A DNA stretch of 64,000 nt from Ginglymostoma cirratum. Taxonomy: Eukaryota. The first letter of the stretch is position 1; every line of letters begins with the position of its first letter. The notes below the pieces were generated by a model. That model did not search any database and was not told the origin of the DNA. It saw nothing but the letters and a program-made list of their open reading frames with translations. The stretch covers positions 7,172,312-7,236,311 of the forward strand of contig JAHRHZ010000125.1 in assembly GCA_024137785.1 (NCBI GenBank). The letters are read 5' to 3'. The position numbers and the translations under genes were made by a program. This document shows positions 9,357 to 62,859 of this stretch, one piece after another.

Positions 9357-10642
9357 CTTTCCATCCAAAGTTGATAACAGAAAGAAAAAGAGCAAGCAAA
9401 GCATGGAATAATCAGAAAAAGGCTGAGTTAAAAATAAGAAATAAAAAGAGCATCAAGAAGTCATTGCTCGTCAGCATTACAAATTATTCCAGAGAAATTC
9501 TATCCAATACATAACGAGGCAAGCTTCAGCATGAAGTTCACAGAGAAAAAAACTGGATCCATCCTGCATTGATAAGACTATTTGTTAAAGATGTATAATA
9601 CAACATAACATGCAAGGTCTTTAGTTCTAATGAGCTGTTTAGTAATTGTATGACTTGTTCTGAGTAATGAGAAAGGAAATAAAAACAAGGTTTACTCAAC
9701 AGGCGAGCAAAAAGTGTTAGTAATAGATAGCAGAAAAAGAAGAATTTTAAATTGGTAGTTTGGATTTCCTGAATACCATAGAATTATTTGCAGTTCCTTT
9801 ATATGTGTAAGCGCTACTTTTAAATATTTTGCACATGATCAACACACATTTCTACTCTTAGATGAATACAATGGAGGAATAGTACAATGCCTGACAAATG
9901 AAGCTTAAATATTACCACATCTAATCTGTCACCACCTACATGCTGTCAAATATACTATTTAAAAGGCATTGCAGGCTGCTGCAAAATATTAGGATTACTG
10001 TTCAAGAAGTCACTCTACATCTATATTTCAGCCAGGCAGTTAGTTGTCATTTTCTGCTCCATTTATTTCAGTAATTGCTACCTGCATAGACCAACAATTT
10101 TTCCCTTTAGACTAAAACCATTATTATCCTTCACCACTGGTGGGAGGTCCAGTTTCAAGAGTCAAAATGTCAGGCTATCAGCTTGTCCTTCCTGCTGTAT
10201 TGACCACATGGCTGAGAAAGTGTTGGGTAAAGAAAGAAAGCTATGAGATAAGGAAACTGAGCGAGTAAGGAAAGCTTGTTGGCTTGTGACATGAAGCATG
10301 ATGACATAATGGGCTGTACCTGAAGCCTGCTGGAATCAGAATGTGGCTATTTTACATACTGCTTGTTAGGATGAGGGCAAAGGTTAGGAAGAGATGGATC
10401 AGTGGTGTCTAGAAGAGTGAAAAATCTGGAATACAGTGACGCAAGGACACAATTTCTATATTCAAACAGATGCATAATCTTTAAAAATCTGAGCATGTAT
10501 TTTTAAAAGGGAGTGTAATGCAACAAAGTATTTAACTTCACTAAGACTAATGCAGATGTACTGATGACCTAAAATAAATAATGCAAGTTGCAGTTGAACA
10601 CAGTTATTGAAATTTTAGGGAGCAAGCCATCACATTTTCTAA

Positions 10643-11399
10643 GATAACAAGCATGGGGCTGGATGAACACAGCAGGTCAAGCAGCATCACAGGAGCAGGA
10701 AAACTTGACGTCTCGGGCCTAAACCCTTCATCAGAAATGGGGGAGGGGAAGAGGGTTCTGAAATAAATAGGGAGAGAGGGGGAGGCGGATAGAGGATGGA
10801 TAGAGGAGAGGATAGGTGGAGAGGAGGCAGACAAGTCGAAGAGGCGGGGATGGAGCCAGTAAAGGTGAGTGTAGGTAGGGGGGTAGGGAGGAGATAGGTC
10901 AGTCCAGGGAGCACGGACAGGTCAAGGGGGCGGGATGATGTTAGTAGATAGGAGAAGGGGGTGTGGCTTGGGGTGAGAGGAAAAACAGGAGAGGGAGGTG
11001 GAGATGAGCTGGGCTGGTTTTGGGATGTGGTTGGGGGAGGGGAGATTTTGAAGCTTGTGAAATCCACATTGATGCCATTGCGCTGCAGGGTTCCCAGGGT
11101 GAATATGATTTGCTGTTCCTGCAGCCTTCGGGTGGCATCACTGTGGCATTGCGGGAGGCCAAGGATGGACATGTCATCTGAGGAATGGGAGGGGGAGTTG
11201 AAATGGTTCGTGACTGGGAGGTGCAGTTGTTTGTTGCGAACTGAGCGCAGGTGTTCTGCAAAGCGGTCCCCAAGCCTCCGCTTGGTTTCCCCGATGTAGA
11301 GGAAGCCACAACGGGTACAGCGGATGCAGTATACCACATTGGCAGATGTGCAGGTGAACCTCTGCCTGATGTGGAAAGTCTGCAGTACCTTTTATTCCC
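10643..11399 (-). mobile_element. 5'-truncated Penelope-like element (Neptune-type) with GIY-YIG endonuclease and 16-bp TSD
   Basis: VYCIRCTRCGFLYIGETKRRLGDRFAEH...GTLQRNGIN in ORF 10687..11337; CCATCACATTTTCTAA at 10627-10642 and 11400-11415. Confidence 0.93.
10703..10737 (-). ncRNA. Minimal type I hammerhead motif, GAAA mutated to GAGA
   Basis: CTGATGA-AGGGTTTAGGCCC-GAGA-CGTC in the element terminal repeat. Confidence 0.6.
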
Positions 11400-13911
11400 C
11401 CATCACATTTTCTAACTTGGGCCAAGTGGAAGGAAGTGGATGTGGTTTTACATGGACCCTCCAAAATGGGAAATGCTGACTGCAGTGGTAGAACAAGGTC
11501 AGAACAGGAAACATAAGCAAATTGTTCTTCCCAGACATCACAGTGAAGTCATTCTCTGGCCATTCATGGCAGCAAATTCCAGAAGCAAAGTCACCTGCCA
11601 TTACTCATAGCAAACGTCTCAAATTCTCCAATTCACTCAAACTCATTAAAGACTCTATCCTCAGTCTCTTCTCCCTTATATCTACAATAGGACCACCCAT
11701 CCATTACGCTCGATGGACTGCAACTGTAGCATTTGCAGAAAGCTGTGTTTCCTCCAAAAGAGCTGTAGGGGGTGCACTCACCACACACACACAGTTGCAA
11801 ACCCTATATCAGGATCACAGAGGTCCGCAGCACTAAAAAAGGCCCTTCAGCCCATCGGGTCATGTCAAAAAACAATCACCTGACTATTCTAATCCTAGAA
11901 GCATTAAAAGGTCTGCCCCCAGTGTGAGGCTGAAACCTACAGCCCAGAGAACAATTTCTCATACACTAGCTGGGCTTGTTGTATCAGTGTCGTCCTCGAG
12001 AAAGTTTGCAATTATAATGTGAAGCGTGGGAGAACACCATATCTGTTCACCCTCAAAAACTGCAGTTCTAAAGAATTAAACAGTTGATCCATCCATATTG
12101 TCCACTTTTTAAAATGTCCGTATGTGTAGGTCGTGTTGAAAGAGTAGGTATTATGTATTAGGTATTAGGTTTAGCTGCAGGAGCATTTGTGAACCTTTCT
12201 TCGTTTTGAGAGTTATCTGGGCAAGCCAATCAGCTCAACCTTCAGTCATTGATGAAAAACCACAGGGTCTTTTGCAGGGGTTCAGTGGGAACTCATGCAA
12301 AAATCAAAAACATCTAAACTGCATATATGGCAATACTATGGGTGGACCTTCACCTAGAGATTAAAGGATTAGATGATTTATATAAAAAAAAATTTGACTC
12401 CATTCCTATTCTAAGTAGGTGACACTAGAACCCTGTTTGCAGTAACAGATGGATAATGATGTGTGCGCGATAGAGACTTTACCACTCATGACAGTAGAAG
12501 AAAGCAACATTCACACAGCTCCCTCCAGCAGCCTACAACTTTGTAGACTATTGTAAAACCAACCCATCCTTTGTCCAGCCCAGGACTTGCGTACCTTAAA
12601 AGTTGGGCCACCTGCGTTTAAAAAAAGCTCATAGTGCTTTGCAGTAGCCGTTGAAATTTTAAACTTCCAATCATCGGGTGGTATATGCAAATTTTAAAGT
12701 AGACTAAAGAGAAATGTACACGACCATAAGTTGGATGCACGGTCATGAACTTAAGCAATACTGCAAAACTAATGAATCAATATAATATTTCATAGAAGAA
12801 CAATAAAGTGTTTCTTATTTGTATGACAGTGGTAACCTAATGTTGATGCTCATATTTAGGATACAATATCTAGCTGGAAGCAGTGAAGGGTCTGATTAGA
12901 CATTGAGGAGGCAGATCAGCTGAAATTCCCAAATAAATGTTGCTCTCCTCACCTGTTAATTTAGGTGAAGGAGTTGGTTTTTCAGGTTGTAGCAGTAGTT
13001 TTCACCACATTTTGCCTTCAACATTTGTAATATCATCACTCTCCATAGGGTCTTATTGATCATTGTTCACTCATAGCAAAGTTCTGAAGCTTATAAAATG
13101 CCTACCACAATTTGCAAGATAGTGTTTTGCAGTATGCACTCATATTCACTAGACCTAATCCAGACACTGGAATCCTCCCCGAACATCCTTTAGAGCATTG
13201 CTTACTTCTTCTTTCCTTTACAATTGCTTCATGATATGCAGAACTTATTGTCCTTCTAAGAAACAGCAAGAGCCATGGGGGAGAAACAGGAATCCCTTGC
13301 TTGTTACACTGTAGCCATCCTGAAAGGTGAGACACTGGACTGATGAAGTCTGAAAACATTATGCTAGCCTCAAACACGTCATTGAGTCATGTGCAATTAG
13401 CTGCGATGTTGCATATAAAACTATACGTTTTGGGAGTAGAAAGCACATACAGTACATACGAAAGTTTACACTTACTTCAAGCAATGCCACAGTCACAGTA
13501 ATCTTAGTTGATCTAACAATTCTGTAAAGCTTTTACAAAGTTTCATTTCTGAAACACAGCTAACTCAGATAAAACACCTCAGAAAATGCATATCAGCGTA
13601 TAGATGACGCTGGCTGGCTATGGCTAGGCTATTGTGCGCCTGTCCTTGTGGTCCCTGATTGCTCAGGTATCTCTTGCAGCATTTTAGTGTTCCTCTCTTC
13701 TTTCACTAGCTGTGTTATAAAAATGTGGCTCCAGTTGTTCAGTGCTCAGTTAGAAGCTTGGCAATTCTCTTGAAATCGAATGCTTTCCAAAGCTAATGCA
13801 GAATGAATGGGAACTTCCCTCAATAGAACAGTGAGTTTCTTTTTCCAATTTATACAGTGGGCCCCAAGATAGGGCTAAATGCTTCCAAAACACAACCTCT
13901 AATGAATAATG

Positions 13912-14530
13912 AGATAACAACGTGTAGTGCTGGATGAACGCAGCAGGCCAAGCAGCATCAGAGGAGCAGGAAGGCTGACGTTTCGGTCGAGACCCTGCTC
14001 CTCTGATGCTGCTTGGCCTGCTGTGTTAATCCAGCTCNNNNNNNNNNNNNNNNNNNNNNNNNNNNNNNNNNNNNNNNNNNNNNNNNNNNNNNNNNNNNNN
14101 NNNNNNNNNNNNNNNNNNNNNNNNNNNNNNNNNNNNNNNNNNNNNNNNNNNNNNNNNNNNNNNNNNNNNNNNNNNNNNNNNNNNNNNNNNNNNNNNNNNN
14201 NNNNNNNNNNNNNNNNNNNNNNNNNNNNNNNNNNNNNNNNNNNNNNNNNNNNNNNNNNNNNNNNNNNNNNNNNNNNNNNNNNNNNNNNNNNNNNNNNNNN
14301 NNNNNNNNNNNNNNNNNNNNNNNNNNNNNNNNNNNNNNNNNNNNNNNNNNNNNNNNNNNNNNNNNNNNNNNNNNNNNNNNNNNNNNNNNNNNNNNNNNNN
14401 NNNNNNNNNNNNNNNNNNNNNNNNNNNNNNNNNNNNNTTCCTGCTCCTCTGATGCTGCTTGGCCTGCTGCGTTCATCCAGCTCTACACCTTGTTATCTCA
14501 GATTCTCCAGCATCTGCAGTTCCTACTATG
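13912..14530. mobile_element. Inverted pair of Neptune-type terminal repeats spanning the gap, 14-bp TSD
   Basis: TCTAATGAATAATG at 13898-13911 and 14531-14544. Confidence 0.85.
14038..14437. other. Assembly gap (400 N)
   Basis: Run of n. Confidence 1.
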
Positions 14531-15509
14531 TCTAATGAATAATGCCTCTTTATGGTAAATAATAAATCCTAGGATCTTAGTAAATATCAAAGGAGCCTTT
14601 CTTACTGAGAGACTATGAACTTGCTACCACATGGATAGCTGAGGCAAATTGCGCAATGCCTTTGAAGAGTACCTTGATATAAATGTGAAGGAGAAAGGGG
14701 TGATAAGGGTAAATGTTGATAGCGGCAAATGAAGTTCGATGGGAGGAGGTTTGTGCTGAGCATTAACACTGGCAAGACAAATTGGAAATGAACTGTCCTG
14801 TATTCAGTGCAATCGTGTACTTCTTCTGTGACAAACAGTTCCAGAAAAATTCATAGATCTAATGCCCAAACTTTGCTGCATGTGTTGTTTCTGCAAAGCC
14901 AAAAATATCAGGGCATTCCTACATAGGAGGCTCAGCATGCATCAAGCTTGTCAAAATATTCTGCTTCCACAAAGGGGTGACTGCCAACTGACATATTCGC
15001 AAAACACAAAAATTTAAGGGCCTAGGTTTTGGTGCAAAAGTAAAAAGGAACAATTTGTAATTTTTCTGGATAAATGTTAAGTACCTCTGTTGTGCCCTGT
15101 CTGATCAAAATTCAACACTCCATCTTGGTACATTATTGCAAGAAATATTCAATGTGTCACAAGTAAACTGCATTTTCAGGTCTCTCGGCAGATACAATAT
15201 AAGCGGCTAGAAAATGATTGGCAATAGGCTACAAATTCATATCATTGTGGCCAAGGCAGTGCTCCCCCCAGATCTGCCACTGGATAGCTGGAGCAATCCA
15301 AGTGAAGGTGTGGGGCTCATTTAAAGTGTTATTTGACAACCAAAGGAGAATTAGGACTCAAATACATATTGTTCAAAACCAGTCCAAATACACAGCACAG
15401 CATCACCAGTAGCTTAGATTACAATTGGCAGTTTAATTGAGACATATTAGGAAACAATACATTACGTTATGATATTTTTGTTAAATATAGAAAAATAGAC
15501 ATGCTTTAC

Positions 15510-15632
15510 CTTGCTGTAAAGGGGTAAAGTAATATTTAGGTTGCAGATTGCATGTTGGACAAGACCTCTAGTCGATTTTGGCTCTTTAATGAAAGATAAT
15601 CGTCCGCAAGGTTCTTGAGTCGTATCTCTTAC
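15510..15632 (-). CDS. ANK2: ANK2 exon, 123 nt: [41 protein letters not shown]
   Basis: ORF 15462..15644; caacag acceptor, gtaaag donor. Confidence 0.97.
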
Positions 15633-18059
15633 CTGTTGAGACATTTCAGAATTTGATTGAGTTCATACAACTGATGCTGAAATATATCAAAAACTGTTTG
15701 GCAAACTGACAAGCCTGCATACATCCATTTCAGTTCATCCTATTGAAATGGATCAATGTATCCTTTGTTCACAGTTCATCATGCAAAGAAAGGATGCAAT
15801 CATTTTCTTTCCAAACTAAAGGGAAATCACTTGTCAAACACCCTTTTCATGAGTCCTGTGTCAGGCTAAAATAGAAACGTGCAGTTGTAACTGTAATAAT
15901 ACATTCAATACAATGCAGATTTGACAATAGAACACTAACATTGGACCAATTGCAAGTGCAGTGTTTACTGTTTAAAAACTCTATAACTATTTTTGTTTAC
16001 ATCTAACACAAAAGACTTTATACACGAATGCTCTAATTGGCAAGGTATGCATCTTAAGATCATTTGGACAGCAGATTCAGATTCCACACTTGCTCAGAGA
16101 TATGAAAGTTCTAAATTCAAGCTGGATATATAAAAACCATAGGACATAAACCAGTTTGGAACAAATGCTTATTCATGTCCCTGACCTGTTATAACATTGA
16201 AACAACAGCATGAAGTACCACATTGCCCTGAAAGTCCCTCAAACACCTGGCAAAGTCAGTTACAGGAGTGATCAAACAGAGAAAATGTGCCTCATGTTTA
16301 GAATTGTCAGAGTCTGAGGAGCTAGTCCTTGAATCACAGGCCGTTTCTCTCCTATGCTTGTTGCGTATAAGTTCGAGAACCTAAAACAGTTCCCCCACAT
16401 CACGTTGCCAATAGTAATGGGATAGTTACTGACAGCAATGCTGACAAAAATCTGTTCGTACAGGTTATTAAGAATTTTCACCAACTGGAAGATTCAGGGA
16501 AATAATGGTTAACATTTGGTCTTCAATGGATACAATACCGCCTAAAACAGAATACTAAGGAATTGATGAGATTTATTATCAATTCTTATGCTTCTTTTTC
16601 TGTCATTAGGAATTGGGTAACAATATCCGAACCAGTTGGGTATTTTCCTTCAATATAATTTGTATTCCGACCAGACTTCCAGGGAGTGAATGGACTCATT
16701 ATTACTTAATCATTTACCTCCCCGTCGGGAGCTAGTACGAATGTACCACACAACTAGAATACCTCCAGCATACCAACAAGACTGAGGGAAGAATTTGGTG
16801 GAATCCTGTTATTAATTAAACTCAAAATAATTTCCACTATCATTACATGAAAAAAATCAATAATTCACTTTAACCAAATGAAAACGCAGACTGAATTTTA
16901 GGGGCCACTTCTGGATGGGCAAACAAATGGATAGACCTGTACTCTTGGTGACATGCCTGCTCAACAGCCATAATTTTATGAATGGTGGGGCCTGTTTCAG
17001 GTGGGTCATGTGTGATCCAATTCAGCCTTTTAAGTGATAGGGCATCAGGGCTTTTAAGCAAGGGTGTGCGGAGCCTCTGCCAGTCTGTGACTCCTCCCCA
17101 AAATTTTTCCCCAAATCCACTCTTCATCAGTGCCCTTTCCAACATGCTCCACTCAGCGCCCTCCCCAGCTCCTCCTCACCACCATCACTGCCTTCTGGCA
17201 CTGTCAATGTGCAACACTGTTGGCTCTGGTTGGCCTGCTACTCTATGAGTCAGTACATCCTACTGAAGATGGCTGAAAGTCCCACCTCATACTATTTCAA
17301 AGGTCAAAGCATAAACGATTAAAGTGGTGTGTGCCGATTAAGTGCGGGTGGGCTGGCCCTGTCCCCCCTTTATCCATTTGCAATGGGGTGCAACAAGCCC
17401 ATCCTCAGTGTATAATCCAGTCCATGGAATTCAAAGTTTAATTGCTGTGCAACAAGTAGTTGACAAGCAGGGATCAACATTTTTATGGTGTTGTGGAATT
17501 TTTAATTTGCTACCTTCCACAAATATGCACAAACAATTATCAGTCTAGTTAACCAGAATTTTCTCTAAATTTAATTTTTGAATAACAGATTAATTTAATT
17601 GTTTGGAAAGTGAAGATGACGATATGTTCAATCACTGCCAAATAACTGACAAAGTTTTAGAGACTATCAAGTCCCGGGCGTCTTTACCAGTGACTGCAAT
17701 GTTAGCGAATTTCAATTGAGTACTTTTCCTTAGGTTACACAAGTGAAGAATAAAACATGTTAAAGATCCAGTTTAAGATAACACCCAAAGACTTGTGCTG
17801 CAATTGTTGGATGTTTAGTAAGAAAATTATCCTGTGATTAAAAGTATTTTTGATGTTCAATCTCTGGGCTTGCACATATGAAATGGCAACTTTGGAAAGA
17901 TAGTGGGAGGGTAAATAGCTTCTAACAATAATCCCGAAGAATACACAACAGTTTAGAAGCTTGGAGAGATGCTGAGGGGTAGACAAGGAATAAAACAGCT
18001 TAGTGTGAAACCCACATATATCTACCATCTACTGGTGCAAATAAGGTGTTTTACCGTAC

Positions 18060-18185
18060 CTTAACAAACAGCGCAAGTCTATTTTCTTTGAAAGCATAGA
18101 AACTGAAAAGATGATGTTGTCCACTCTTTGTGAGAGGCACAAGATTGCCAAAACAGTCAGCATAAATTGGCTTGCCCTCCAGTAC
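18060..18185 (-). CDS. ANK2: ANK2 exon, 126 nt: [42 protein letters not shown]
   Basis: Manual translation; ttgtag acceptor, gtacgg donor. Confidence 0.97.
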
Positions 18186-18569
18186 CTACAAAAAGACAGA
18201 TTCAGATAGAAATATTAATGCCTCCATTAGTATATGATTTTTTTCTGATCCATCCAGTCTGTATGGTTTGATTACTGTTAGGAAGAAAAAGGAAGAGGGG
18301 AGGGAGTTAGGAAGAAAGGAGGGGGATGAAAGAGGAGGATGGTGCCAGAAATGAATCTGAAATATTAAGTGTTAATTTAAATTCAGCAAGAGCTTTGTAT
18401 GAATTTAGGAAAAGTGTATTTTCGCTTGGAGTCAGAGTGAGTCTTCATTTGAACATATTGTAATTTAAACTATATTTTAAACAAATGCGATTTGTACTAT
18501 AGTCAGAACAAATATAAAATTGAATCAAAGAACTAATTAAACAAACAAAAATTTGAGCATTACTGGAAA

Positions 18570-19330: not shown

Positions 19331-19627
19331 TGAAAATCCTTAGCCAAGATAGACTAGGCATGTTTCAAGACCAAAAATGATGGACTTGGGCCTTTTCAAG
19401 TTTCCACAATGTGCAGTGAGAAATGATCTGATCAAGGTGGCCCTTGTTCCACAGATTGGCTTTGATCCCCCTTATTTCAGCATAAACCTTGTTTGGAACA
19501 AATGGCTTGGACCCTATTTGCAAGGTTGCCAATAAAGCCAATTTTATACAGCATGAAACTGTAGGAATCCCCATGTAATTTCCTAATGTACTCTAGAGCA
19601 CTGCCTAGTCATTAAACTCATTCGTTA

Positions 19628-19762
19628 AAAGCAAAACAAAGCAGATTCTAGAAACCTGAATGAACAACAAAACAAAAGTGCTGGAGAAACTCAGTGGGTT
19701 TGGCAGCATCTGTGAAGAAAGAAAGACTTAACATTTCAAATCCGATATGACCCTTCCGTGTG
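19628..19762 (-). mobile_element. Short PLE-type terminal-repeat insertion (family B), 13-bp TSD
   Basis: AACTCATTCGTTA at 19615-19627 and 19763-19775; homologous to copies at 32741, 51312, 56945. Confidence 0.8.
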
Positions 19763-19788
19763 AACTCATTCGTTATTTATTCTCGTAC

Positions 19789-32740: not shown

Positions 32741-32868
32741 GGAAGGGTCACCGGACCCGAAACGTTAACTCTGATTTTTTTCTTCACAGATGCTGCCAGA
32801 CTTGTTGAGCTTTTCCAGCAACTTCTGTTTTTGCTCCTGATTTACAGCATCCGCAGTTCTTTCGGTTT
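32741..32868 (+). mobile_element. Short PLE-type terminal-repeat insertion (family B) with partial hammerhead
   Basis: GGAAGGGTCACCGGACCC-GAAA-CGTTAAC; TAATCTTT at 32733-32740 and 32869-32876. Confidence 0.8.
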
Positions 32869-33030
32869 TAATCTTTTGCCTTTTTCATTGCTGTTTTTAG
32901 AATATGTTTTTAGATTTAGCAAAATTAACAGGATATAATGCTGTCTTTGGACTGATAATGACTGTATTTTAGATCGATCCGAAAATAGATGTTGGATTTG
33001 TTTGTCAGATTTGCATGTTTTGGAACTTAC

Positions 33031-36515: not shown

Positions 36516-36950
36516 CTGCTTTGACCTCTTGACATTAACAGATCCTTGCAGCAGGTGCTTCTGGCAGTTTTGACATTTGATCTTGATAGGTTTGCTGGCA
36601 GGTCTCATGGGTCTAACAATATTGGGTTCATGCATTTTCTATACATAATCATGAATTTTTTTTTTTAACAATTCCAAAGGACACATTACCGCCCCAAAAG
36701 ATGTAGCATGAGCAGCTCCAATGGAATACTTTACTTCTCTGAGAGGATGGGGGACCCTGGTTATCTAAGTGAATCACAAAGTTCATACTTCCTCTTATCA
36801 GGTCTAATCTGCATACTACAGAGTCCAGGGCTACAACTTCTCCTGGTTCTGTGGAGGCAGCTGCTAATTTAAATAGCCAGCTGCCTCCATAATGTAGACA
36901 AAACACAGCTAGTCCCCCTTTTCTCACCCCCATGAAAATGGTAAATATCA

Positions 36951-37430
36951 CTGAGGTTGTTGACGTGCTTGTTGAGCCGGCTTGTTTTCGTTCAGACGTT
37001 TCGTCACCATGCTAGGTGACATCATCAGTGAGACCTCCGATGAAGCGATGTTATTCTACTCCGCTTGGAATTTATACTGTCCGGTCCATTATGGTGAGTA
37101 CTGTCATTTCTGGTATTTGTCTGTATGCATTTGTATATGGGGCCCAATTCTATACGTTTGTTTATTGCTTTACAGTGGAGAACAAACATATAGAATTGGA
37201 CCCCATATACAAATGCATACAGACCAAAACCGGAAATGACAATACTCACCATAACAGACCGGACAGTATAAATTCCAAGCGGAGTAGAATAACATCGCTT
37301 CATCGGAGGTCTCACTGATGATGTCACCTAGCATGGTGATAAAACGCCTGAACAAAAACAAGCCGGCCCAGCGAGCAAGTTAACAACTTCACCCACAACC
37401 AGAGCTACAAATCTTTGCGAAAACTTTAAA
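36951..37430. mobile_element. Fold-back (tail-to-tail inverted) Poseidon-type PLE terminal-repeat insertion, 11-bp TSD
   Basis: Arms 36952-~37169 and ~37174-37391 are reverse complements (mirror ORFs in the track); GGTAAATATCA at 36940-36950 and 37431-37441. Confidence 0.92.
36992..37031 (-). ncRNA. Minimal type I hammerhead ribozyme motif with intact core
   Basis: TCA-CTGATGA-T-GTCACC-TAGCAT-GGTGAC-GAAA-CGTC-TGA: 3-bp stem I, 6-bp stem II, palindromic ACGT stem III. Confidence 0.8.
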
Positions 37431-38769
37431 GGTAAATATCATTTTTTTGGGTGAGACTTTGGTTCCTGCTGTATTTTCATCCTGATGGCGTTGCTCTACA
37501 TTATGTCCAAGGCTTGGTTTTAAATTATTAAAAATGCTCATTTCCATGGGGAACCCATTTGTAACTGTATTAACGTAACCACATCAAGTTATCACTTGAC
37601 AAGAAAAGCACTTCTCAAAACATTTAATATTTTGACGGCAGTTTGTGGACAGATTACAGATTGTGTCCAAAGCTGAAACTGTGTCATATTTTGTCATTCT
37701 CAAGCAGACAGGTAACTTTTCCTTCGAAAAAAAATTAAACGTTACTACATAAAGCATTTTAGATAGTTGTCACAAATGAGAAAACAAGATTCAAAAAGGC
37801 AAAGTGTTAATATTGTTAAGAGGATATTCAAACTACAACAGGAGAAAAAAGAAAAATTTTTAAAAACAAAGCAAAATACTGCAGATGCTTGAAATTTGAA
37901 TGAATATTATTATTTCATTGCATAATAAGTATAATTCCAATCAACGATTTGTTCCCATTATAAAGTGATTTTATACAAGAAGTCCAGAGATGATACTCCA
38001 TCAAATCAAATTACCATTTCCCCCCCCCCCGCCATTTTAATTGAGTTGCTGCAATTTCAGTGCATAATAGAAATGAAACATTTATTTTTTTTATTATTAT
38101 TATCCTGGTTTGATTATTTATTTTCACAATTCCTTTATAAAAAGGAATTAAGAGTTACTTCTTTGAATATGTCAATAAGATTCCTGTTACCATTGTTCGG
38201 AAAGAATTCCAAACAATGTGATTCTCACCTCATGAATTTTTTGCATAAACAGTTTTACACCAGCAAAGGGAGTATGCATGAAAATGTTCACAGTGCACCA
38301 GTAATAATGTCAGTTATAGCCTTCTCATTCATCAAAGTGTCAGTTGAGTAAAAAAGAAAAACCACTTCAGTGCTCTGTATCATTGATGCCCTTTCGGGTG
38401 AAAATTATAGCTGCAGAATAACATTGGCTTTTGAAAAACACTTGTACTGCTACTGCAGCTGTGTAAAAATAGACAAAGTTGTTTATTCAGAATGGTCACT
38501 GAAAGGATGATGTGTGTCATGCTTCTTTCATTGACACTTAAAGACAGAACAAACATTTTAGTGTAAATTTCCATTAGTCAACAAAAACAAAAACACTAGT
38601 CCGAAAAACAAAACTACAATTTTAAAACCTGCATCTGTTTTTGGTGGTCAAGTTAATGCAAACATGCAAGGCAAGAGTGCACCAAGGCATTTGACCCAAG
38701 GTTAAAGGAGGGGTACAAAAACACGAGAAAACAAATAAAACCACACAAAGTCATGATGCAACTCTTCAC

Positions 38770-38802: not shown

Positions 38803-39934
38803 CTGAAACAGAATATGCAGGGAAAGCAAGGAATTAGAAACCTAGCACAAGGTCAAATATGAAAGAAGCTAGATAATTGAACTATCGCAGTACACTGCCA
38901 GGAAACTGAGGGAAGCTGCTGCAGCAGAAGAAGAAGTTGCTCTTGGCTGCCCACCAGCTTCTGTGGTAAGACGAGGATTCATAAATGTCTTATGAGAAAA
39001 AAGGGAAAAGGTCTGATGCAAAGGAGGCTGCAATTCCCTTTGACATTCCAAAGGAACACTGCTGCTCCTCCTGGCCACAAGAGATATTTCCCAACTCACT
39101 TAGACTGCCTCTTCAACATTGCCACTGGTTGTTGACCTAATAAGGTTTTGCAGCAAAACTGCAATGACGTCCCCACTTGGGCCCTGGGTAAAATGTCAAA
39201 GTAGTCACATGTGCATCTTGCTTTAGTTGTATGCCTCATTTCCCTGCAAAACCCCTCGGATCGATATCAGGGGCAAGGGGATAGAGTTGACCATCCATCT
39301 AGGTAGATAACCTACCTGTCGTTCAACTGAGCACTTGCTGGAATTCTGCTGTGAGAACTGGCTTTAAAAAAAGATCCAGAAAGGTTCCCATATGGTTGGA
39401 AGGCTTTCTATGTTACTGATAGTGGGGCATGGTTTGGAAAAGTACCTTGAATCAGTAGAACTTGCTGTTCTTTCTTTTAAAAGGAGTAGTAATTGCTCAA
39501 GCAAAAGAGTAATAAGTTCACAATAGAAGAACAATCCACACGGACAAGTACTATTTGCAGAAATGGATCATCAGAACAATGTCAAACACAAATCTTAAAC
39601 ATCTAATTCAGAATTTGATTATTTCTATCTGTCCATCAGTGAAAGCAAGGGTGGAATCTTCCCAGGCACTGAATGACATGGGATTTAGTGAGAAGGTGAG
39701 GGAATTCACATGAGATGGCTACCAGTGAGCTGCTCGACCACAAAAGCAAGAAGTTCCACTTCCAGCCAAATGTTGAATGGTGAGATGGGATTCTCTCTCA
39801 TGCGCAGCAAAAGGCCTACGTGAACTCATTAGCATGCATTAACATCTTATGGTCCAAACTCACCTCATTGATACATAGTTTCCCTTTCTTCCCCCTGCTC
39901 ATTAGAAACTAGACAATTCCCGACATACAAGAGA

Positions 39935-41508
39935 CTTAAGGTTCTTACAAAGATTTGTAGCTCGAGTTGTGGATGAACTAGCTGGTTATTGTACAAGGGT
40001 CTAGGCCCGAAACGTCAGCCTTCCTGCTCCTATGATGCTGCTTGGCCTGCTGTGTTCATCCAGCTCTACACCTTGTTATCTCTGGTTATCGTACAGTTGT
40101 TTCATCACCATGCTAGGTAACATTATCAGTGCAACTTCCGATGAAACAATACTGTTCTACTCTGCTTGGTATTTATATGATCCGATCTGTTAAGTTGGGT
40201 TGTGTCATTTCTGGTTCTGTTCTGCATGGGTTTGTATATAAGGTCTAATTCCATACCGTTGTTGATTGCATTATGGGTTGAAAACCCGGTTGAAAACCGG
40301 GTGTAGGAATTCCCGTGTGTCTGTGGTTGGCTTGAGTTAGGATGGTCACGTTGTCCCAGTTAAATTGTTGGTCTTCATTGTCCGAGTGCACTGAGATGAG
40401 GCAAAGTTCGTCGAGTCGTTTTGCTGCTAGCTAGTGTTCGTATATCCTGATGGCTAGTTTCCTTCTGGTCTAGCTGATGTAATGTCTGTTGCAGTCATTG
40501 CAAGGTATTTGGTAAACTACGTTGGTCCTGCATGTCATGATTATGGGGTTTTTGGTCCTTGTACTTGTGATAGAGTGGCTGTGGGTTTGTGTGCTACCAT
40601 GATTCCTAGTGGTCGTAGGAGTCTCGTCGTCACTTGTGATATGTTCTTGATGTAGGGTAGTGTGGCCAGTGTACTGGGGCGTACACTTGGCATTGTCTAT
40701 CTAATAGGCACCCGTGGATGAAGTTGTTGGGATATCCATTGTTAGCAAAGACCTTGTATAGGTCCTCTTCCTCCTTCCTGCACAGTTCTGGCATATTGCA
40801 GTGAGTTGTGGCCCATTTGAATAGTGTCCTAACCCAGTTTTGTTCGTGGAACTTGGGGTGAATGCTGTGGAAATTGAGGATTTGGTCAGTGTGAGTTGCC
40901 TATATACTGTGGTCTGGAACTCCCCATTGGTCATTCGATCTACCTTGACATCTATAAAGGAAGTTGATTGTTGTCTTCCTCTTCTCTCATAAATTTGGTC
41001 CCGGTGAAAACGTTGTTAATGAACCACCCTACGACAAACATTCTCAAGGACCAAAAATCCCATACCCATGACATGCAGGATCAACGTAGTTTACAAAATA
41101 CCTTGCAATGACTGCAACAAACATTACAATCGGCCAGACAGGAAGGAAACTCACCAGCAGGATACACGAGCACCAGCTAGCAGCAAAACGACACAATGAA
41201 CTTTGCCTCATCTCAGTGCACTCGGTCAATGAGGGCCATCAATTTTACTGGGACAACGTGACTATCCTAGCTCAAGTCAACCACAGACATGCACGGGAAT
41301 TCCTGGAGGCCTGGTTTCCAACTCATAATGCAATCAACAATCATATGGAATAAGGTCCCATTTACAAACCCATGCAGAACAGAACCAGAAATGACATAAC
41401 CCAACTTAACAGACCAAGTCATATAAATACCAAGTGGAGTAGAACAACATCGCTTCATCGGAGGCCGCACTGAATGACTAGCCAGCTCAGCGAGCAAGCT
41501 GACAACCT
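39935..41508. mobile_element. Poseidon-type PLE with inverted structure: minus arm ~39935-41020 (RT end + GIY-YIG), plus arm ~41025-41508 (GIY-YIG)
   Basis: ORF 41108 GQTGRKLTSRIHEHQLA...AREFLEAWF; ORF 40701 NGEFQTTVYR; CATRCAAGAGA at 39924-39934 and 41509-41519. Confidence 0.9.
39996..40081 (+). mobile_element. Neptune-type terminal-repeat fragment nested in the Poseidon terminal repeat, 14-bp TSD
   Basis: CTGGTTATYGTACA at 39982-39995 and 40082-40095. Confidence 0.88.
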
Positions 41509-41864
41509 CATGCAAGAGAAATTGGTAACCTGGTGACTCCGGCTCACTGGTTGCTCATCCAGATTTCCATCTTAGACACCAGTCACCAACATCTCAGAGC
41601 GCTTCTAGTAAGCTCCACGCACATCGTTTGGCATGCTCCTGGCGAAGCCATCAAGGCCTCAGAGGTCTGAACAGCAGCAAGAAAAATTGCATGGAACATT
41701 GTGGGGGGTCATTATAGCATGATGGTGGACATTACTCTACTGTAGGTCCAGGGCCCAGGGGATAATGTCGAGAACTAGACATAATCCCATAAGGTGTGGG
41801 GAATCTGTGGTGGCTAAGAACTGATGGGCTGGCTAGCGTATGGGTCATGAAGGAGCATAATCTA

Positions 41865-42400
41865 TTAAGTTTTTGAGAAGACTTGTAGCTCGGGTTGTGG
41901 ATGAGGCTGTACACTTGCTCGCCGAGCCAGTGTGTTTGATTGCAGATGTTTCGTCACACTTCCAATTCTGTTTTTCAGTGATTTGTATATCGGTTCCAGT
42001 TCAATGTGTTTGTTGATGGAATTCCAGGTGGAATGCCAGGCCTCCAGGAATTCCTTGGCATGTCCCTGTTTGGCTTGTGCTATTGTGAATGTGTTGTCCC
42101 AGTCAAATTCTTGTCCGTATGTATTGAGACCAGTGAGAACTGGTCATGTCTCTTGGTGGCTAGTTGGTGTTCGTGTATCCTTATTGTCAGTTCTCTTCCA
42201 GTTTGGCCTATGTAATGTTTCTCACAGTCCTTGCATGGTATTTTGTATATTACATTAGTTTTATTGGTTGAGAGTATGGGGATCCTTTACGTTTGACAGT
42301 AGCTGTCACATGATGGTTGTTGGTTTGTGAGCTACCCTGATACCTGGGGGTCTGATATGTCTCTGATGTGTGTGTCTGTCTTCTTGTGGTCTGTCGCAGA
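41865..42400 (-). mobile_element. Poseidon-type PLE 3' fragment with internal deletion
   Basis: Homologous to 39935-41020 and 62251-62590; GIY-YIG remnants. Confidence 0.85.
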
Positions 42401-49445: not shown

Positions 49446-49577
49446 GCAGCATCAGGGGAGCAGGAAAGCTGAAGTTTCGGGTCTGGACCCTTCTTCCTCT
49501 GATGCAGCCTGGTCTGCAGTGTTCATCCAGCTCCACACCTTGTTATCTCAGACTCCAGCATTGGCAGTTCCTACTAT
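49446..49577. mobile_element. Short inverted Neptune-type terminal-repeat insertion, 15-bp TSD
   Basis: CTCTCTCAGMGTCTG at 49431-49445 and 49578-49592. Confidence 0.8.
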
Positions 49578-51311: not shown

Positions 51312-51456
51312 TCTGAAGGGTCACCAGACCTGAAATATTAATACTGATGTCTCTCCACAGATGCTGCCAAACATGCTGAGTCTTTTCCAGCAATTTGTGT
51401 GTTTGTTTGATTTCTGATTTTTACATTCATAGTTCTTCCATTTTCATTTTTATTTA
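51312..51456 (+). mobile_element. Short PLE-type terminal-repeat insertion (family B), 13-bp TSD
   Basis: GCATCTTAATTTT at 51299-51311 and 51457-51469. Confidence 0.8.
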
Positions 51457-55329: not shown

Positions 55330-56410
55330 GAGAGCAAAGCCAGTTCATGAAACTATAATGGCAAATAAAATCAGGAAAAACTAAAGACCATTTATAAATA
55401 CTGAGGATAACTCAGGTAAGAGTGAAGCCCATGAAAGGCCAAAAGGTTGAGGAGATAGGAAGCATTGTCCTTATGAAATAAAGAGGGAGAGAGATGCAGG
55501 CATTGGATGTAAGGAGGATGAATGTGAAATATTAGATGTCATAAACAAAGTGAGAGGGGACTGTTTTGAAAGGAGATAAATTACAAAGCTCAGATAGGAT
55601 GTATCCCAGACTGTTAAGAGAAATATTGGAGTCATGGATCATCGCTATACAATCCCCCTTGGCTATAGAAGTCGTGTCAAACACTGAAGAAGAGTTAACA
55701 TTGTATTGTGACTTAAAACCAGAGGAAATTGATAGACTGAATAAGTACAGGCCAGTCTAACTGCAGTGGTGGGCAGATGAGGGGAAAACATTCTGAGCAA
55801 TTTGATTAATCATTTGGAAAACCACAGATTACGCAAGGAGAATCAGCATGGATTATCAAGGGGAGATGTGTCTGATAAATATAAACTAATACTTGGAGGA
55901 GATTATAAAAAGGCGGTTGATGGTAATGCACTTGATTTATTCCACATGTAGTTTAGAATGAGTTTTGAAAAGGTCTCACATGGCAGACTGGTCAGAAAAG
56001 CAAAAGCCCACTAGATTCAAAGGAAAAGGGCAAGCCAGTTCCAAAAGTGACTCAGTAGCAGGAAGCAAAGGCTAATGGTTAACTGGCGCTTTACTGACTG
56101 CAAGGCTGCTTCCGTTAGATTCCACAGGACTCAGTACACAGTGCCTTGATATTTCTGAAATATTTTAATTCAAATTTAAATATAGGGGTCATAATTGAGA
56201 AATGTGCAGATGATACAACATAATAGTATCCGATAGTGGGGAAGACAGCAGTCGATTCCAGGACGATATCAAGGGACTGAAGAAGCGGACATCACAGATA
56301 CAAATGGGATTAAATTATGAGAACTGTGAGGTAATGTACGGGGGAGGGGAAACAACCCACAGGAATACTGATATGCATAGAGGAACAAAAGTATCTTAGA
56401 GTACATATTT
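55330..56410 (+). mobile_element. Degenerate CR1 LINE ORF2 (RT) fragment
   Basis: DRMYPRLLRE, NKYRPV, ENQHG, FEKVSHGRL and ADDT motifs with frameshifts. Confidence 0.8.
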
Positions 56411-56944
56411 TCTTTGGAACAAAGAGGCTGAGGGACTCTTCCTGTCTACTTCTGATCTTGGCTTAGGACATCTTGTTTGCCTCCAATGTAACACTTTTAC
56501 TCTTGGTCTGCTTTTGTCCTTTTCCATAGCAGTGTTAACTCTAATTGAATTATGATCCCTATCATCTTATACTTTACCACCCACATTCCCTGAAATGAAG
56601 TCTGGAACTGCTGCATTTCTTGTTGAGTTATTACACACACTTACTGCCCTATTACTTTTGCACTTCTTAGAATTTTGCCTACATATTTGCTCTGATCTCC
56701 CTCCAACATTTATGTGAAGTTCTTAGAATGGGACTTATACACCAACATCTACAGTATCAATAATGACAGCAAGTTTCTGGGCTTAAGTCAACCTTTAAAA
56801 CTGCTAAAAATAACCCATCAAAATGAGGGTTTACTTATCCATCAAACAGCGAAAGTGAGCCACCAAACTCAGTGTATTTGAAATGTCAGTCAAATCCCAC
56901 CCAAAGAATGACCATGTGTTAAATTCCCATGACCATGTGTTAAA

Positions 56945-57061
56945 AACCTGAAACGTTAACTCTGTTTCTTCCCTCACAGATGCTGCCAGACCTGCTGAGC
57001 TTTTCCAGCAACTGTGTTTTTGTTCCTGATTTATAGAACCTGCAATTCTTTCGGTTTTTAT
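56945..57061 (+). mobile_element. Short PLE-type terminal-repeat fragment (family B)
   Basis: High similarity to 32755-32868. Confidence 0.8.
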
Positions 57062-57156
57062 CAGTATGTTACATCATGGCTGAAAAGATGAGAGAATTTA
57101 TTGGTACACTGAGTATGTACAAGCATGACTTTTGGGAAGGAAAATGACGAGGTTAT

Positions 57157-57249
57157 CTGATGAAGGTCTAGGCCCGAAACGTCAAGCTTTCCTGCTCCTA
57201 TGATGCTGCTTGGCCTGCTGTGTTCATCCAGCTCCACACCTTGTTATCC
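57157..57249 (+). mobile_element. Short Neptune-type terminal-repeat insertion with hammerhead motif, 12-bp TSD
   Basis: CTGATGA-AGGTCTAGGCCC-GAAA-CGTC; AGGTTATCTGAT at 57150-57161 and 57250-57261. Confidence 0.85.
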
Positions 57250-57659
57250 AGGTTATCTGATATGCCAGGTCAACTTTGTCACTGTAATTTATGGTTAATT
57301 ACTTTTGTAGGAGATAAAGGCCTTCACTTGCATGTTATCCACAAATGGCACAGTGCAATAAAATCTTTTAAAAATGCACCATTCCTCCAGAATTAACATT
57401 ATTCTCAACTGAACTTGTATATTTCTATGCATTTAGTGCAGACAACAGATACTCTGGCTTGCCTAACAGCAACCTGAAATCCAAGTAAATTCATTGTATT
57501 CCAATTTCCAATGATTCAAATATCTACTACTTTAGGTATATGAAGTGAAATTTTTAAAAAAATTATTCACAACAAATATGATATTTGTCCCTGGGCTGAT
57601 CCATATTTGCTTCCACGACAAGACTGCATACTTGCGACTATGCAGCAATTTCCAATGGT

Positions 57660-58335
57660 GACCAGAGGTATAATTTTCTTTGTTAGGTGAGTATCTAGTC
57701 TAATGATCCACTGCATCCTGAGCCTATCAAACACATCGGCAGACACTGCTGGCCTTCCTCTAACCGCCGCCTGTAGATGCTGATCAATTGGAGGCTGGTA
57801 GCTCCAGGACTCAGCAACACCTCCAAGGAGGACTGGATAGCTGCAAAATCAGCAGCCCTGGACTCCCAAGACGCCACAGTGAGCAAAGACAAAGGTGTGT
57901 TGTTAGTGATGTGGTGGGGTTGATAGGGTGCAGGGATTCGCAGGCAAAGTTGGGGGGGTTGAGTCAAGAGCAAGAGCAGTGGTGTGACTGTCAGCAGCCA
58001 TACTCCTCTCCTACGTACATGCCTTCCATCATGGCAAATTATTGCAAATCAAAGACACTCTACCAACTAGCAAGCATTGCACCCAGGTTTATGAGATCAT
58101 TAAACCGGAAGATAATGGCTGCCCAGGTGGGAACAGACCCTTACGTGGTTGACAAATTGATCACTTAAAGTTCTCAAGTGGAGGCAGAATGGGAAGGATG
58201 TCCTCTATCCCTCCTATCTGGCATTTACTTGGGTGGTGGCAGGAAGGTGTTGGGTATCTGTCTCATGACAGTCCCCCTAATTTTCCAGCCCTCCTAGCTC
58301 CTTCTTCACATCCTGTGAGCCCAGAAAATTCTGTG
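57660..58335 (-). mobile_element. Possible degenerate PIF/Harbinger-derived DNA element (Myb/SANT-like remnant)
   Basis: Weak similarity only (SLEVLL...RRR peptide, aaaattct-type end); GC-rich island. Confidence 0.35.
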
Positions 58336-60050
58336 ACTTGCTGCTGTAACTTTCTTCCATGACTTTGTTATATTGAGACTTAACTATTCCAATGTTCTCC
58401 AGGGTGGCATCCCACCTTCTAACTCATGTAAAATTAAACTTGCCATAACCTTTTCTGCTAGCAGGCCAACTCCATCAGGTCCTGTTCACCCGTCTCCCTG
58501 GAACTTGCTGACTCACACTGGTTTCTAGTCCTGCAACAACTTGTTTCAAATACTTATCCTTCACTCTAAATCCCTACAGATCATCCTCCTGAGGTATAAA
58601 TTTCCAGTGGAGCCCCAACCAGTTAAGATCTATGTGCTCCTCTAATACTAGCTTCATCCACATCCCTGAATTTAGATGCTCACTATTGACAGCTGTACCT
58701 TCAGGTTCACAGATTCGAATAGAGAATTCTTTCATTGCGATGCCCTTTTTGACCAGGCATTAGTGAACTGTCCTAATTTATTCTCACATAATTTGGTATC
58801 AAATTTTATTTGGTAATAGGTCCCTGAAATGCCTTGAGACTCGTTACCACATTAAAGGTGCTAATATAAATGCACATTTTTTGTTGTTGGTTTGATTACG
58901 GTTATGTGGTTAGCTGATGTTTCCTTTCCCTCTCTCCAGTGTACTGACAGCAACTGGAGCATAGAACGACCATCCAGCTGAGACTCATTAATGAAGTACA
59001 AACTGGAAATCACACACTTAATCTTTTTTCCTGTGCGGTTGAGTATGCTACCATCTAGTATATACTTTCTCATTCAGCCCTGTGGAAACATGAACATGGG
59101 ACTCTGCAAATCGACCAGCGAGATCCATCTGCTTACAATTCCCAAGTGATCAATAAACAAAGCTCAGAAGTGTGCCACATTAGGCTTTCATTTATTTTAA
59201 ATAAAATTTAAGTAAAATGCAGAGGCAAGGATTATAGTTAGGCAAGGCAATTTTTAATTAATCCAAGGTAAGTTAATATTATGGTTTATTAATTGCAACT
59301 AGATACACAATAACAAAACCAGAATAAACAGATACCATACCCACAAATCTTCCAGAGATTATAAATAAAAATTAGTGATTGGCATGAGAATGAATGAAAT
59401 GCCTATAAAAAGAGCTCATTATTTCTGCTAAATTAGTTAGGTTCTCCTGAGATGCAGCTTTGACCTTTTAGCAGTTTGGCTACTCCTAAACTTTGCTTGG
59501 AACCTTGTAAAAAAATGTAGGAAAAAAAACAGAGGCTTTGACCCACAAACCACTAACAAGAATTATTAACTTTCCTAATAGGTGTCTGTGGCTTCACTAT
59601 CTGGATAACCCAAGCTGTAGAAAGGATGTGGCATGGTTGTCAGCCATTCCTGTCAGCAGAATAGGAAATCCAAAAGAATGATGTCTGCAATAAACTGATG
59701 GTACAGATTGGTAACTCCAGATTAGCTAAACTTGTCCACCCTTGTCATTTGACCATTCCCACCAAATGAAGCAGAGTTAGGCCATGCCAGTGCACAGAAT
59801 CATGGGCAGGCCTGTAGCAATCACTGCAAATTGGTCTCATCTATGCTATGAACAAATAAACACCAAATGATGTTTCTAATGCGGATGAAATCAGTCTGTT
59901 TTACTATTTTAGTTAACGGTTTAAAGATGAAATGTGTAATGGCAGAAACTGAAGCAAGAAACACATCACTGCTATGGTCTGCACCAACATGGTTGATGTG
60001 GAAAAGACATCCCTTTGTGTGACAGGTAAGTCTAAGAAGCCACAATGCGA

Positions 60051-60084
60051 TAGGGTTAGGGTTAGGGTTAGGGTTAGGGTTAGG
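60051..60084 (+). repeat. Interstitial telomeric repeat (TTAGGG)~5.7
   Basis: TAGGG(TTAGGG)4TTAGG. Confidence 0.95.
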
Positions 60085-60718
60085 CAAAACATTATCCACA
60101 GACTATGACTCTAATAAAGCTACCTGGATGATCTCCAGAATTATTTGATGACTGAATCAGAAAGTGGACAAAACATATCGGATGGAAGAAAAGAAAGATT
60201 ACCACCCTGAAAAACCGTGAAGAGCCTGATGAGTGCCTGCCCACTCACCCACCTGTTTCCCCAACTAAAGCTGCAAAGTTTGGCGAGATGCTCCAGGAAT
60301 TCACCTGCAGCATGAAAACATGTCTGATTGCATTGACACTGCGGACATGTCCAAAGACAGTGCACTAACTGGAAAGTACTGCTGTGTTTTTCTAGTGCTG
60401 ACACCCAGTATTTTTTCAATGCCTTTTGCTGTACAAGGTCAGGCCTTTGAAAGGTAGGAAAAAAACTGAAACTTTTTTTCACATAGTTACTGCATCAGCA
60501 TGTTTACATTTGGTATTTCTTGACATAGAGCACGTTTGTAGGCAAATAAGATTATGCGGCGCCTCTTCAGCTGTATCAAAATTCTGTTTAACACAAGTTT
60601 AGGGGCAGTCCACATTCGATTTGTCTCATCACGATTTGACTACAATTGCTTCAGTCTAGAATTTCTCTTAGCCAATGAATTTACTGAATTTTAAATAAGT
60701 AACTGATTAGAAATGTAC

Positions 60719-60863
60719 CTGTCTGAGCGTTCTCCAAGGCGTCCTATTCCTCTATACGTCATATTGTCCAGGTATCGACTGCTCGGTAGAGAGTCATCAC
60801 CGAGTTCTTTCAAATCCTCTGGTCTGAGGTACTCTCCTCCATCACCGGTCATTGTATCATCTC
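60719..60863 (-). CDS. ANK2: ANK2 exon, 145 nt: (G)[47 protein letters not shown](S)
   Basis: Manual translation; acceptor ttcccaag, donor gtacat; phase 1 to 2. Confidence 0.95.
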
Positions 60864-61965
60864 CTTGGGAATAAGAGACAGTTGATCAGTCAGGAGAGGC
60901 ACTGAGTTGCAGAGTGACCAAGGATGAAAAGAGACACTGGCTGGAAACTAACCATGCACAGTCAAGTAACATTAGAGAAGCAATTGCTTATTACTGAAGA
61001 CCAAGAGAAAATGTATGAAAATAACCTAGCGACTGTAACATATTACATAAAACAATGCACTGCAACTTGAAACTTGATGGAGACTCCTTTACCATCAATT
61101 GTCAGCTGACAAACAGATTTTCTGAATCAGATCAAGAGAAAGCTGGAATCATTTTCTCTCTAGGAAAGGGACTGCCTTGTATAAAAGGTGGTACTTCATA
61201 ACACAGTGATCTCCTAAACTAGCTTTAATTGTTGAAATTACAATTGCTGTAATTGGCCCGAGCTTTTATTTAGCTTTTCACCTCTTCCAGGAGATTCCAT
61301 AGCTCTGGGTGATGAAGAAGTGTACATTTTGAACGTGAAGTGTTGCCCAGAGCATCACAACTGTCGGAATGGAATCAAGTGGACCAATGGGTTTTCTTCA
61401 GTCATTTTCTTTATGTTAGGTCGCTAGTGGCAGTCATGCCACACAAGTGTCAAGGAATGTCCGTTACCACTCCTTGACGGTCAGTTCCAGTCTCACCGTC
61501 TAATCCTGTATCATAGAGTCAGAGGTCTACAGAGATGACAATCCTTTGGCCCATCAAGTCTGCACTAGTCAAGAATGAGCACTTATTTTAACTCCATTAT
61601 CCAGCACTTGGCCCGTAGCCATGTATGCCTTGGCATCACAAAAGCACATCTAAACATTTGTTAAATTTCATGAACGTTTCTGCCTCTATCACCCTCACAG
61701 TCAGCGAGTTCCAGACGCCCACCATTATCTGGATAAAAAAATCTTGCCTCATATCTCATCTAAACTTCCTGCCTCTTACCTTAAATATATGCACACTGAT
61801 CACTCCACTGAGAGGAAAAGTTTCTGTCCACCTGATGCCCCTCATAATTTTATACATGTCAATCATGCCCTCCCTCAGGCTCTTCTATTCAAAGAAAAAC
61901 AACCCCAGTCTGTGCATTCTCTCTTCATAAGTAAAACTCTCCAGCCCAGGTGATGCTCTGGTGAA

Positions 61966-62094
61966 GTATAAATCATTGAGATAGCAAGAACTGCAGATGC
62001 TGGATGTAGAGATAAAAGTGTGTGCAGCTCCTTTCCTGTTCCTCTGAGGCTGCCTGGCCTGCTGTGTTCCTCCAGCTCCACACCCTGTTATATA
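61966..62094. mobile_element. Short inverted Neptune-type terminal-repeat insertion in CR1, 13-bp TSD
   Basis: ATGYTCTGGTGAA at 61953-61965 and 62095-62107. Confidence 0.75.
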
Positions 62095-62250
62095 ATGTTC
62101 TGGTGAATCTCCTCTGCACTCTTTCCAGTTAAAACTTGTGTCTCCCGTAATATGGATTCCAGAATTGCAAGAAATACTCAAAATGTGGTCTAATTAACAT
62201 TTTATATGGTTCCAGCATAACCTCCCTGCTCTTAAACTTTATGCTAATAA

Positions 62251-62631
62251 GGTTTTGGAGTAGATTTGTAGCTCGGGTTGTGGGTGTTGAGGTTGGTTGG
62301 CTCGCCGAGCTGGTTTGTTGTTCCGCAGACATTTTGTTACCATACTGGGTAACATCCTCAGTGCAGCCTCTGATGAGGTGTCGGTGTGTTTTCCTGCCTG
62401 GTTTTTAAACTCTGGGGTCCACTGAGCTGGATTGCCTCACTTCCGGTTTTCCTTCATAGTGGAGTGTACATGGGGTCAAGTTCAATGTGTTTATTAGTAG
62501 TATGCTTCGTGGAGTGCCAGGCTTCTAGGAATTCCGGTGCCTGTATCTGCTTGGCTTGTCCCAGGATTTTGGTGTTGTCCCAGTCGAATTGGATAAGGAG
62601 AACCACTCAGCTCGGCGAGCCAACCAACCTT
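62251..62631 (-). mobile_element. Poseidon-type PLE 3' fragment with short inverted end, in CR1, 16-bp TSD
   Basis: AACTYTATGCTAATAA at 62235-62250 and 62632-62647; decayed hammerhead at ~62325-62365. Confidence 0.88.
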
Positions 62632-62859
62632 AACTCTATGCTAATAAATACAAAAGCATCCTATATGCCTTGAGGACCATTTTAACTACCTGTTCTGCTA
62701 CCTTAAGGGACTGGTGGTCATGTACACGAAGGTCCCTCTTATTCATGGTGCTTTCCATGGTCCTACCATTCATCATGTATCCCATTGCCTTGTTTGTCTG
62801 GCCCAAATCCATCACCTCACACTTAATGAGACCAAATTCCATTTGCACCATCAACACTA

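Follow-up and report, generated by a model that had tools for sequence, protein, structure and literature searches.

How does an insertion come to consist of two oppositely oriented arms that stop at two different places of the same element? The question is raised by the 64,000-nucleotide stretch of Ginglymostoma cirratum contig JAHRHZ010000125.1 analysed here (the window), where six insertions (N1, N2 and N3 of Neptune type, P1, P2 and P3 of Poseidon type; Table 1) are truncated copies of Penelope-like elements from two lineages. In each of them one arm stops at a short site (short end, S) and the other, placed head to head with it, carries a tail (tailed end, T); an insertion with one of each is written S+T. 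The first-pass annotation had described six such insertions bounded by target-site duplications of 11-16 bp, and this description holds: the flanking direct repeats are 16, 14, 13, 11, 11 and 16 bp long in the order given above, exact in N1, N2 and P1 and with one mismatch each in N3, P2 and P3. Five of the six pass the duplication score (cut-off at least 7.5, passed by 123/312 real clusters and 2/300 controls with mismatched flanks) and classify as S+T, while P2, with a score of 6.1, is below the cut-off and was accepted by eye only. The inverted tail of about 20 nt noticed in N1 is also real, 19-20 nt long and without overlap with the other arm.

The flanking repeats are supported as true target-site duplications by sites where the element is absent, and these sites have the single copy that the annotation had expected. 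For N1, contigs of organism C from two studies (runs X18 and X20) join window position 10626 to 11400, the element being absent and the 16-mer present once. In organism B (X13) the N1 insertion is missing together with its target, the contig joining 10617 to 11463 (window 10618-11462 missing). Of 136 insertions, window copies included, 40 could be tested because the repeats around them had spanning paralogues, and a single-copy paralogous site was found, within 2 nt, for 35 of these 40. The five misses were L075, L187, L252:3414, L300 and the insertion nested in P2; L300 is likely not a true duplication, because the site fits two copies, and the miss of the nested insertion (+21) is due to a local deletion. 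Median duplication length was 14 bp in Neptune-type insertions (n=96, 84 within 11-16 bp) and 12 bp in Poseidon-type insertions (n=31, 24 within 11-16 bp).

The genome (4.36 Gb) contains very many copies, with 114,569 endonuclease candidates at first look, and was sampled with a grid of 86 readable 10-kb stretches (841,613 bases) out of 128 requested, the 42 that read as N being dropped; the grid is not fully random, as 60 stretches adjoin readable stretches or the window. Copies that were not chosen by their ends are called unselected, meaning the grid and the insertions flanking search loci for the Neptune type, and the grid or picks by body sequence for the Poseidon type. A duplication was detected in 44/108 non-edge Neptune-type clusters of the grid. 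For the family of P3 the basis was the window copy and 40 search matches.

Among the 70 unselected, duplication-bounded Neptune-type insertions, 34 were S+T, 18 had only a short end and 13 only a tailed end, 4 combined a tailed end with an arm whose start lay upstream of the short site and 1 combined a short end with an overshot tailed end, and there was neither S+S nor T+T among them. Unselected Poseidon-type insertions were S+T in 11/13 cases. When only those unselected two-armed insertions are considered that have a duplication and in which each end lies at one of the fixed sites, 45/45 were S+T (0 S+S, 0 T+T), whereas independent choice of ends predicts at least half to be like pairs, giving 0/45 a probability of at most 0.5^45 (3e-14). 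Loci picked by search added a further 20 and 16 S+T insertions and no like pair. With the duplication requirement dropped, 3/100 two-armed clusters seemed alike at both ends; the apparent T+T pairs L240 and L288 were rejected, as they proved on inspection to be S+T with an alignment that overran into the duplication. End positions are thus non-random across the genome sample and paired one of each. It is likely that the enzyme starts copying the RNA from both cut strands, at two different internal sites. No publication quantifying the pairing was found in the literature searched, of which most subscription papers, the Penelope papers of 2004-2006 cited for the tail among them, were not part.

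Two claims of the annotation need narrowing in this light. The end points that it considered fixed are two clusters of positions, from -10 to +7 around the anchor for short ends and from about +27 to +48 for tailed ends, and are not base-exact. The layout is met in both lineages, as claimed, and it is not universal: 31/70 unselected Neptune-type insertions are one-armed, and two further window insertions (49446-49577 and 57162-57249) deviate from it.

The target sequence has a symmetry of its own. Neptune-type targets carry AA...TT as a mirror image, 7-8 bp beyond each cut: of 202 half-sites, 129 have A at -8 and 116 have A at -7 (background 29%), beside short and tailed ends alike, and AA was observed 81 times with 17 expected, positions -20 to -10 being at background. 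In one-armed Neptune-type insertions A at -7 was present in 27/37 at the nick inferred to have primed and in 13/37 at the other nick (Fisher p 0.002); the corresponding 27 and 21 of 37 for A at -8 do not differ significantly (p 0.22). Target and RNA share no long homology, the mean microhomology being 1.0-2.2 nt compared to about 0.6 under a null that omits some selection. In the young Neptune-type copy L095 the two start sites form a degenerate direct repeat (10/12 identity, 33-nt offset) with the ends in the same register, while in L008 the identity is only 7/12, and the repeat was not found in four Poseidon-type copies. Folding of the RNA around the start sites indicated ordinary stability (z 0.19, 0.97), and therefore no structural explanation is claimed.

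The arms carry information on how the copies were made. Their lengths range from 12 to over 2000 nt, and the junctions of 57 gap-free copies differ from one another by eye, with short overlaps or extra bases, indicating that the palindromes were made at insertion. Arms are more alike within than between insertions (0.94 versus 0.89, n=41; 0.87 versus 0.83, n=17; 0/10,000 permutations), in agreement with a single RNA or a single source locus. The tailed arm of N1 lies wholly inside the tail and therefore needs an RNA-templated start of its own. At their other end, 50/106 Neptune-type arms begin within a pile-up of 5' ends located 80-109 nt upstream of the short site, where the long copy L096 also begins. 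These ends often adjoin the hammerhead-like core on its 5' side (-92) rather than lying at the expected cut site (-64), and around L095:552 read joints cluster at 550-558. It may mark the 5' end of the RNA.

Taken as a whole, the explanation that we favour, and hold to be rather probable, is that one enzyme complex nicks both strands and makes one cDNA per nick from two internal sites, probably of the same RNA. The complex would nick the target strands 12-14 bp apart and leave 3' overhangs of the duplication's length, about 14 nt, and each 3' end would then prime reverse transcription at one of the two sites, about 35 nt apart, probably on one RNA. The enzyme would have two endonuclease domains and act as a dimer, the form predicted for the protein of PAc, a Poseidon element of Anolis carolinensis, which cuts and extends both strands (PMC11167929). 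Where one cDNA overruns the other, the trailing one would displace the leading one, and the cDNA 3' ends would be joined via short homology or untemplated bases and filled in. One-armed copies would represent a lasting cDNA from one nick only. Of the two priming events on opposite strands proposed in the first-pass annotation, the pair as such remains the best reading, and the placing of the tailed end at the end of the RNA does not.

Several observations weigh against this explanation. The sole remaining like pair, L247:6966-9322, is a head-to-head S+S pair without a duplication, and the unselected Poseidon-type sample is small (n=13). No clear target motif was detected in 66 Poseidon-type half-sites, the best candidate being A at -2 (32/66, p 7e-4 uncorrected for 12 positions). 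Likeness of the arms cannot tell a single RNA from a pair of RNAs with a common source locus, and in L018 and L243, both of which contain gaps, the arms are discordant. Arms consisting of the tail only are what two primers sharing an RNA would most simply produce, though they are rare (N1 only, 0/53 others), and therefore strand displacement must be assumed. The in vitro study of PAc, in its accessible text, saw no difference in start site between the strands and did not test pairing (PMC11167929), and for the proteins encoded in the window the mechanism is read from genomic end positions.

Priming on opposite strands could also take place on two separate RNAs, with an asymmetric complex fixing one subunit to each site, and to this we give a small chance. 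With two templates the long overlaps usual between arms need no displacement, and both the scarcity of tail-only arms and the two discordant arm pairs also speak for it. The price is an extra asymmetry that forbids like pairs; furthermore, the arms are mostly of the same subfamily, and both discordant pairs span assembly gaps.

The tail is described in PMC8557442 and PMC3846280 as often or optionally present at one end and explained by endonuclease resolution or self-priming, and both papers propose what is here the next alternative: single priming at the tailed site, self-priming of the folded-back cDNA and trimming by the endonuclease ("EN-mediated resolution" in PMC8557442) to produce the short end. 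We regard this as improbable. Many junctions do lie at palindromic hammerhead-stem sequence, and in 53 gap-free copies outside the window the 5' reach of the arms was equal within 10 nt in 13, as folding back would produce; in 26 the tailed arm reached further. However, a copy cannot exceed its template, yet the short-ended arm reached further in the remaining 14, which therefore cannot be explained as fold-back copies of one cDNA. Nor do the arms of N1 overlap, and the 18 unselected one-armed insertions with a short end have no tailed arm. Both sites also prime in vitro (PMC11167929).

That the tailed end is the end of the RNA was rejected, because the tail continues into the element, is overshot by some insertions and lies between two internal starts in PMC11167929; priming at an RNA end there is accordingly very unlikely. 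Most genomic copies do stop at the tail end, and a germline RNA processed to end at the tail would be compatible with the DNA data. Yet in the Neptune type the tail runs on into a common leader and the open reading frame (ORF) in 9/30 long loci, and in the Poseidon type it runs on in the ORF in 13/25 (counted from read alignments, which replaced a loose pattern count of 15/25), the other loci being truncated or gapped earlier. Some insertions overshoot the tail, to +48 and +51. In X21, poly(A) RNA reads span the tail end, about 200-500 deep in each orientation, although these are unstranded and may be read-through; no pile-up of RNA starts or ends was found in X21, and X22 gave 14 reads only, the libraries being ill-suited to end mapping. 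The Poseidon-type tail ends about 110 nt into the ORF, and in the anole element it ends at 111-118, the tail being enclosed by the two internal sites at which PAc initiates in vitro (PMC11167929).

Finally, the notion that a few master hairpins gave rise to the lopsided palindromes by copying, or that these are assembly artefacts, suggested by fixed-size N gaps in the centre of many copies, is largely refuted and barely credible given the variable junction positions and arm lengths, the N1 left junction in the independent run X3 of organism A, the empty site in another organism and the opposite-strand joints present in raw reads.

The favoured explanation, copying from both nicks at two internal sites, could be sharpened into an obligate twin priming with fixed geometry, which we put forward tentatively. 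A two-fold symmetric enzyme would read AA-N6-(about 14)-N6-TT, nick both strands and dock its two reverse transcriptase sites about 35 nt apart on one RNA, using in the young Neptune-type copies the two units of the direct repeat. The "optional" tail would then be the ruler of the dimer, conserved in two deep clades, and the 5'-end pile-up about 97 nt upstream would be the 5' end of the RNA.

The identity of both lineages as Penelope-like elements with a reverse transcriptase (RT) and a GIY-YIG endonuclease (EN) was upheld. The Neptune-type family has RVT_1 followed by GIY-YIG in a single open frame in loci L074 and L075, RVT_1 being above the curated cut-off in L074 only, and in Poseidon-type loci RT and EN are present as decayed pieces. 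In both lineages a pair of cysteines is seen by eye between GIY and YIG and corresponds to the CCHH motif, a defining trait of endonuclease-bearing (EN+) Penelope-like elements (PMC8557442). Both also show the pLTR-ORF-pLTR layout (pLTR, pseudo-long terminal repeat) with an inverted pLTR and a tail of 30-40 nt. A C-X4-C-X2-C linker lies upstream of the EN in L074, and a CX2-5CxxC linker between RT and EN is characteristic of Neptune and common to Nematis (PMC8557442); the label Neptune-type, as opposed to Nematis, and the clade names are provisional. The linker zinc finger is absent before the EN in L060 and in the P2 arm, as expected for the Penelope/Poseidon clade. The Poseidon-type ORF starts in a hammerhead-like stem II and has the tail inside it (L047 translation from the core; L146 frame), while the Neptune-type tail precedes the first ATG of the long frame, which is at about +75 (L095:648-760). 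Hammerhead core words were detected by pattern search and the ribozyme is putative; an Rfam scan gave no hammerhead family match, only hairpin look-alikes below the gathering score.

The inverted arm, the one-sided tail and the two internal starts that bound this tail are published (PMC8557442, PMC11167929). Like the elements here, PAc combines an RT with a C-terminal GIY-YIG, its two internal starts bound a tail of 30-40 nt, and its target and RNA lack long homology; its hammerhead at the ORF start has a putative counterpart here (PMC11167929). Its activities on both strands were seen in vitro and are read here from genomic ends; its cleavage motif is 5'-ATT-3', which differs from the Neptune-type AA...TT, and the accessible text of PMC11167929 does not report the pairing and duplication lengths given here. 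Canonical EN+ elements such as Pen2a_Av likewise have head-to-head arms, an often one-sided tail of 30-40 nt and a flanking duplication, the rotifer duplications being 8-10 bp compared to the medians of 14 and 12 bp here (PMC3846280, PMC8557442). The origin of inverted pLTRs and tails has been called undefined (PMC8557442) and the later steps of Penelope-like integration open (PMC11167929).

Table 1. Features of the six insertions, and of other Penelope-like insertions, in the window.
Feature	Position	Strand	Remarks
N1 left target-site duplication, 16 bp	10627..10642	.	exact; single copy at empty site in runs X18, X20
N1 long arm, Neptune-type 3' fragment, stops at short site	10643..11379	-	
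N1 long arm, GIY-YIG coding sequence	about 11059-11379		
N1 hammerhead-like core	about 10707-10735		by eye; one core change
N1 tail-only inverted arm, 19-20 nt	11380..11399	+	zero overlap with long arm
N1 right duplication	11400..11415	.	exact
N2 left duplication, 14 bp	13898..13911	.	right copy 14531-14544, exact
N2 short-ended arm	13912..13996	-	
N2 tailed arm	13994..14530	+	split by 400 N at 14038-14437
N3 left duplication, 13 bp	61953..61965	.	1 mismatch; right copy 62095-62107; 7 paralogous matches fit single copy
N3 tailed arm	61966..62030	-	diverged; about 10 nt past usual tail end
N3 short-ended arm	62031..62094	+	
P1 left duplication, 11 bp	36940..36950	.	right copy 37431-37441, exact
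P1 short-ended arm, Poseidon-type	36951..37179	-	hammerhead-like core about 36998-37029, by eye
P1 tailed arm	37181..37430	+	tail 39 nt
P2 left duplication, 11 bp	39924..39934	.	1 mismatch; right copy 41509-41519; below score cut-off
P2 tailed arm, decayed RT-thumb and GIY-YIG sequence	39935..41007	-	about 21 nt deleted near short site
P2-nested one-armed Neptune-type insertion, short end	39996..40081	+	own 14-bp duplication 39982-39995/40082-40095
P2 short-ended arm	41045..41508	+	
P3 left duplication, 16 bp	62235..62250	.	1 mismatch; right copy 62632-62647; 1 paralogous match fits single copy
P3 tailed arm	62251..62597	-	
P3 short-ended inverted arm, about 32 nt	62600..62631	+	
Neptune-type insertion outside six-copy pattern: tailed arm and inverted arm from 38 nt upstream of short site	49446..49577	.	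15-bp duplication, 1 mismatch
One-armed Neptune-type insertion outside six-copy pattern, short end only	57162..57249	+	12-bp duplication

The 400-N gap in N2 is flanked on both sides by identical element sequence and is probably an assembly gap at the hairpin; because of this identity the true length of N2 is probably about 170-200 bp. The window also holds another Poseidon-type fragment with a tailed end and without a convincing duplication (41862-42353) and a Neptune-type tailed end truncated by the window edge (1-102). A third family of short repeats occurs at four places (19663-19724, 32742-32873, 51315-51407 and 56933-57062); its hammerhead-like stem is similar, it has a tail-like end, and it is probably a further subfamily of Penelope-like elements. 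An open frame at 5234-5755 resembles what we take to be a decayed LINE (long interspersed element) fragment. Neptune-type copies often lie inside Poseidon-type copies (L149:679, L139:2167, L157:1121, L170:2099 and the insertion nested in P2, which the first-pass annotation does not mention), among loci partly picked for Poseidon content, and in two cases the nested copy is near the Poseidon short site.

In twin priming of LINE-1, the two nicked strands prime on the same RNA molecule and yield a head-to-head inversion within a duplication; homology lets the second primer anneal further upstream, at a site that varies, and there is no overlap between the arms. In the present elements, in contrast, both sites are fixed and about 35 nt apart, homology is 1-2 nt and the arms usually overlap. 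The architecture itself was known, and the present additions are the orthologous empty site, the controlled count of the pairing in two lineages and the refutation of the RNA-end step. The value of these results is thus in a testable rule rather than in a new element, as three numbers (the one-of-each pairing, the 12-14-bp stagger and the mirror-image target motif) can be tested in the existing in vitro system. If the rule is true, these telomerase-related elements would use a two-ended target-primed reverse transcription, unlike LINE-1 and R2.

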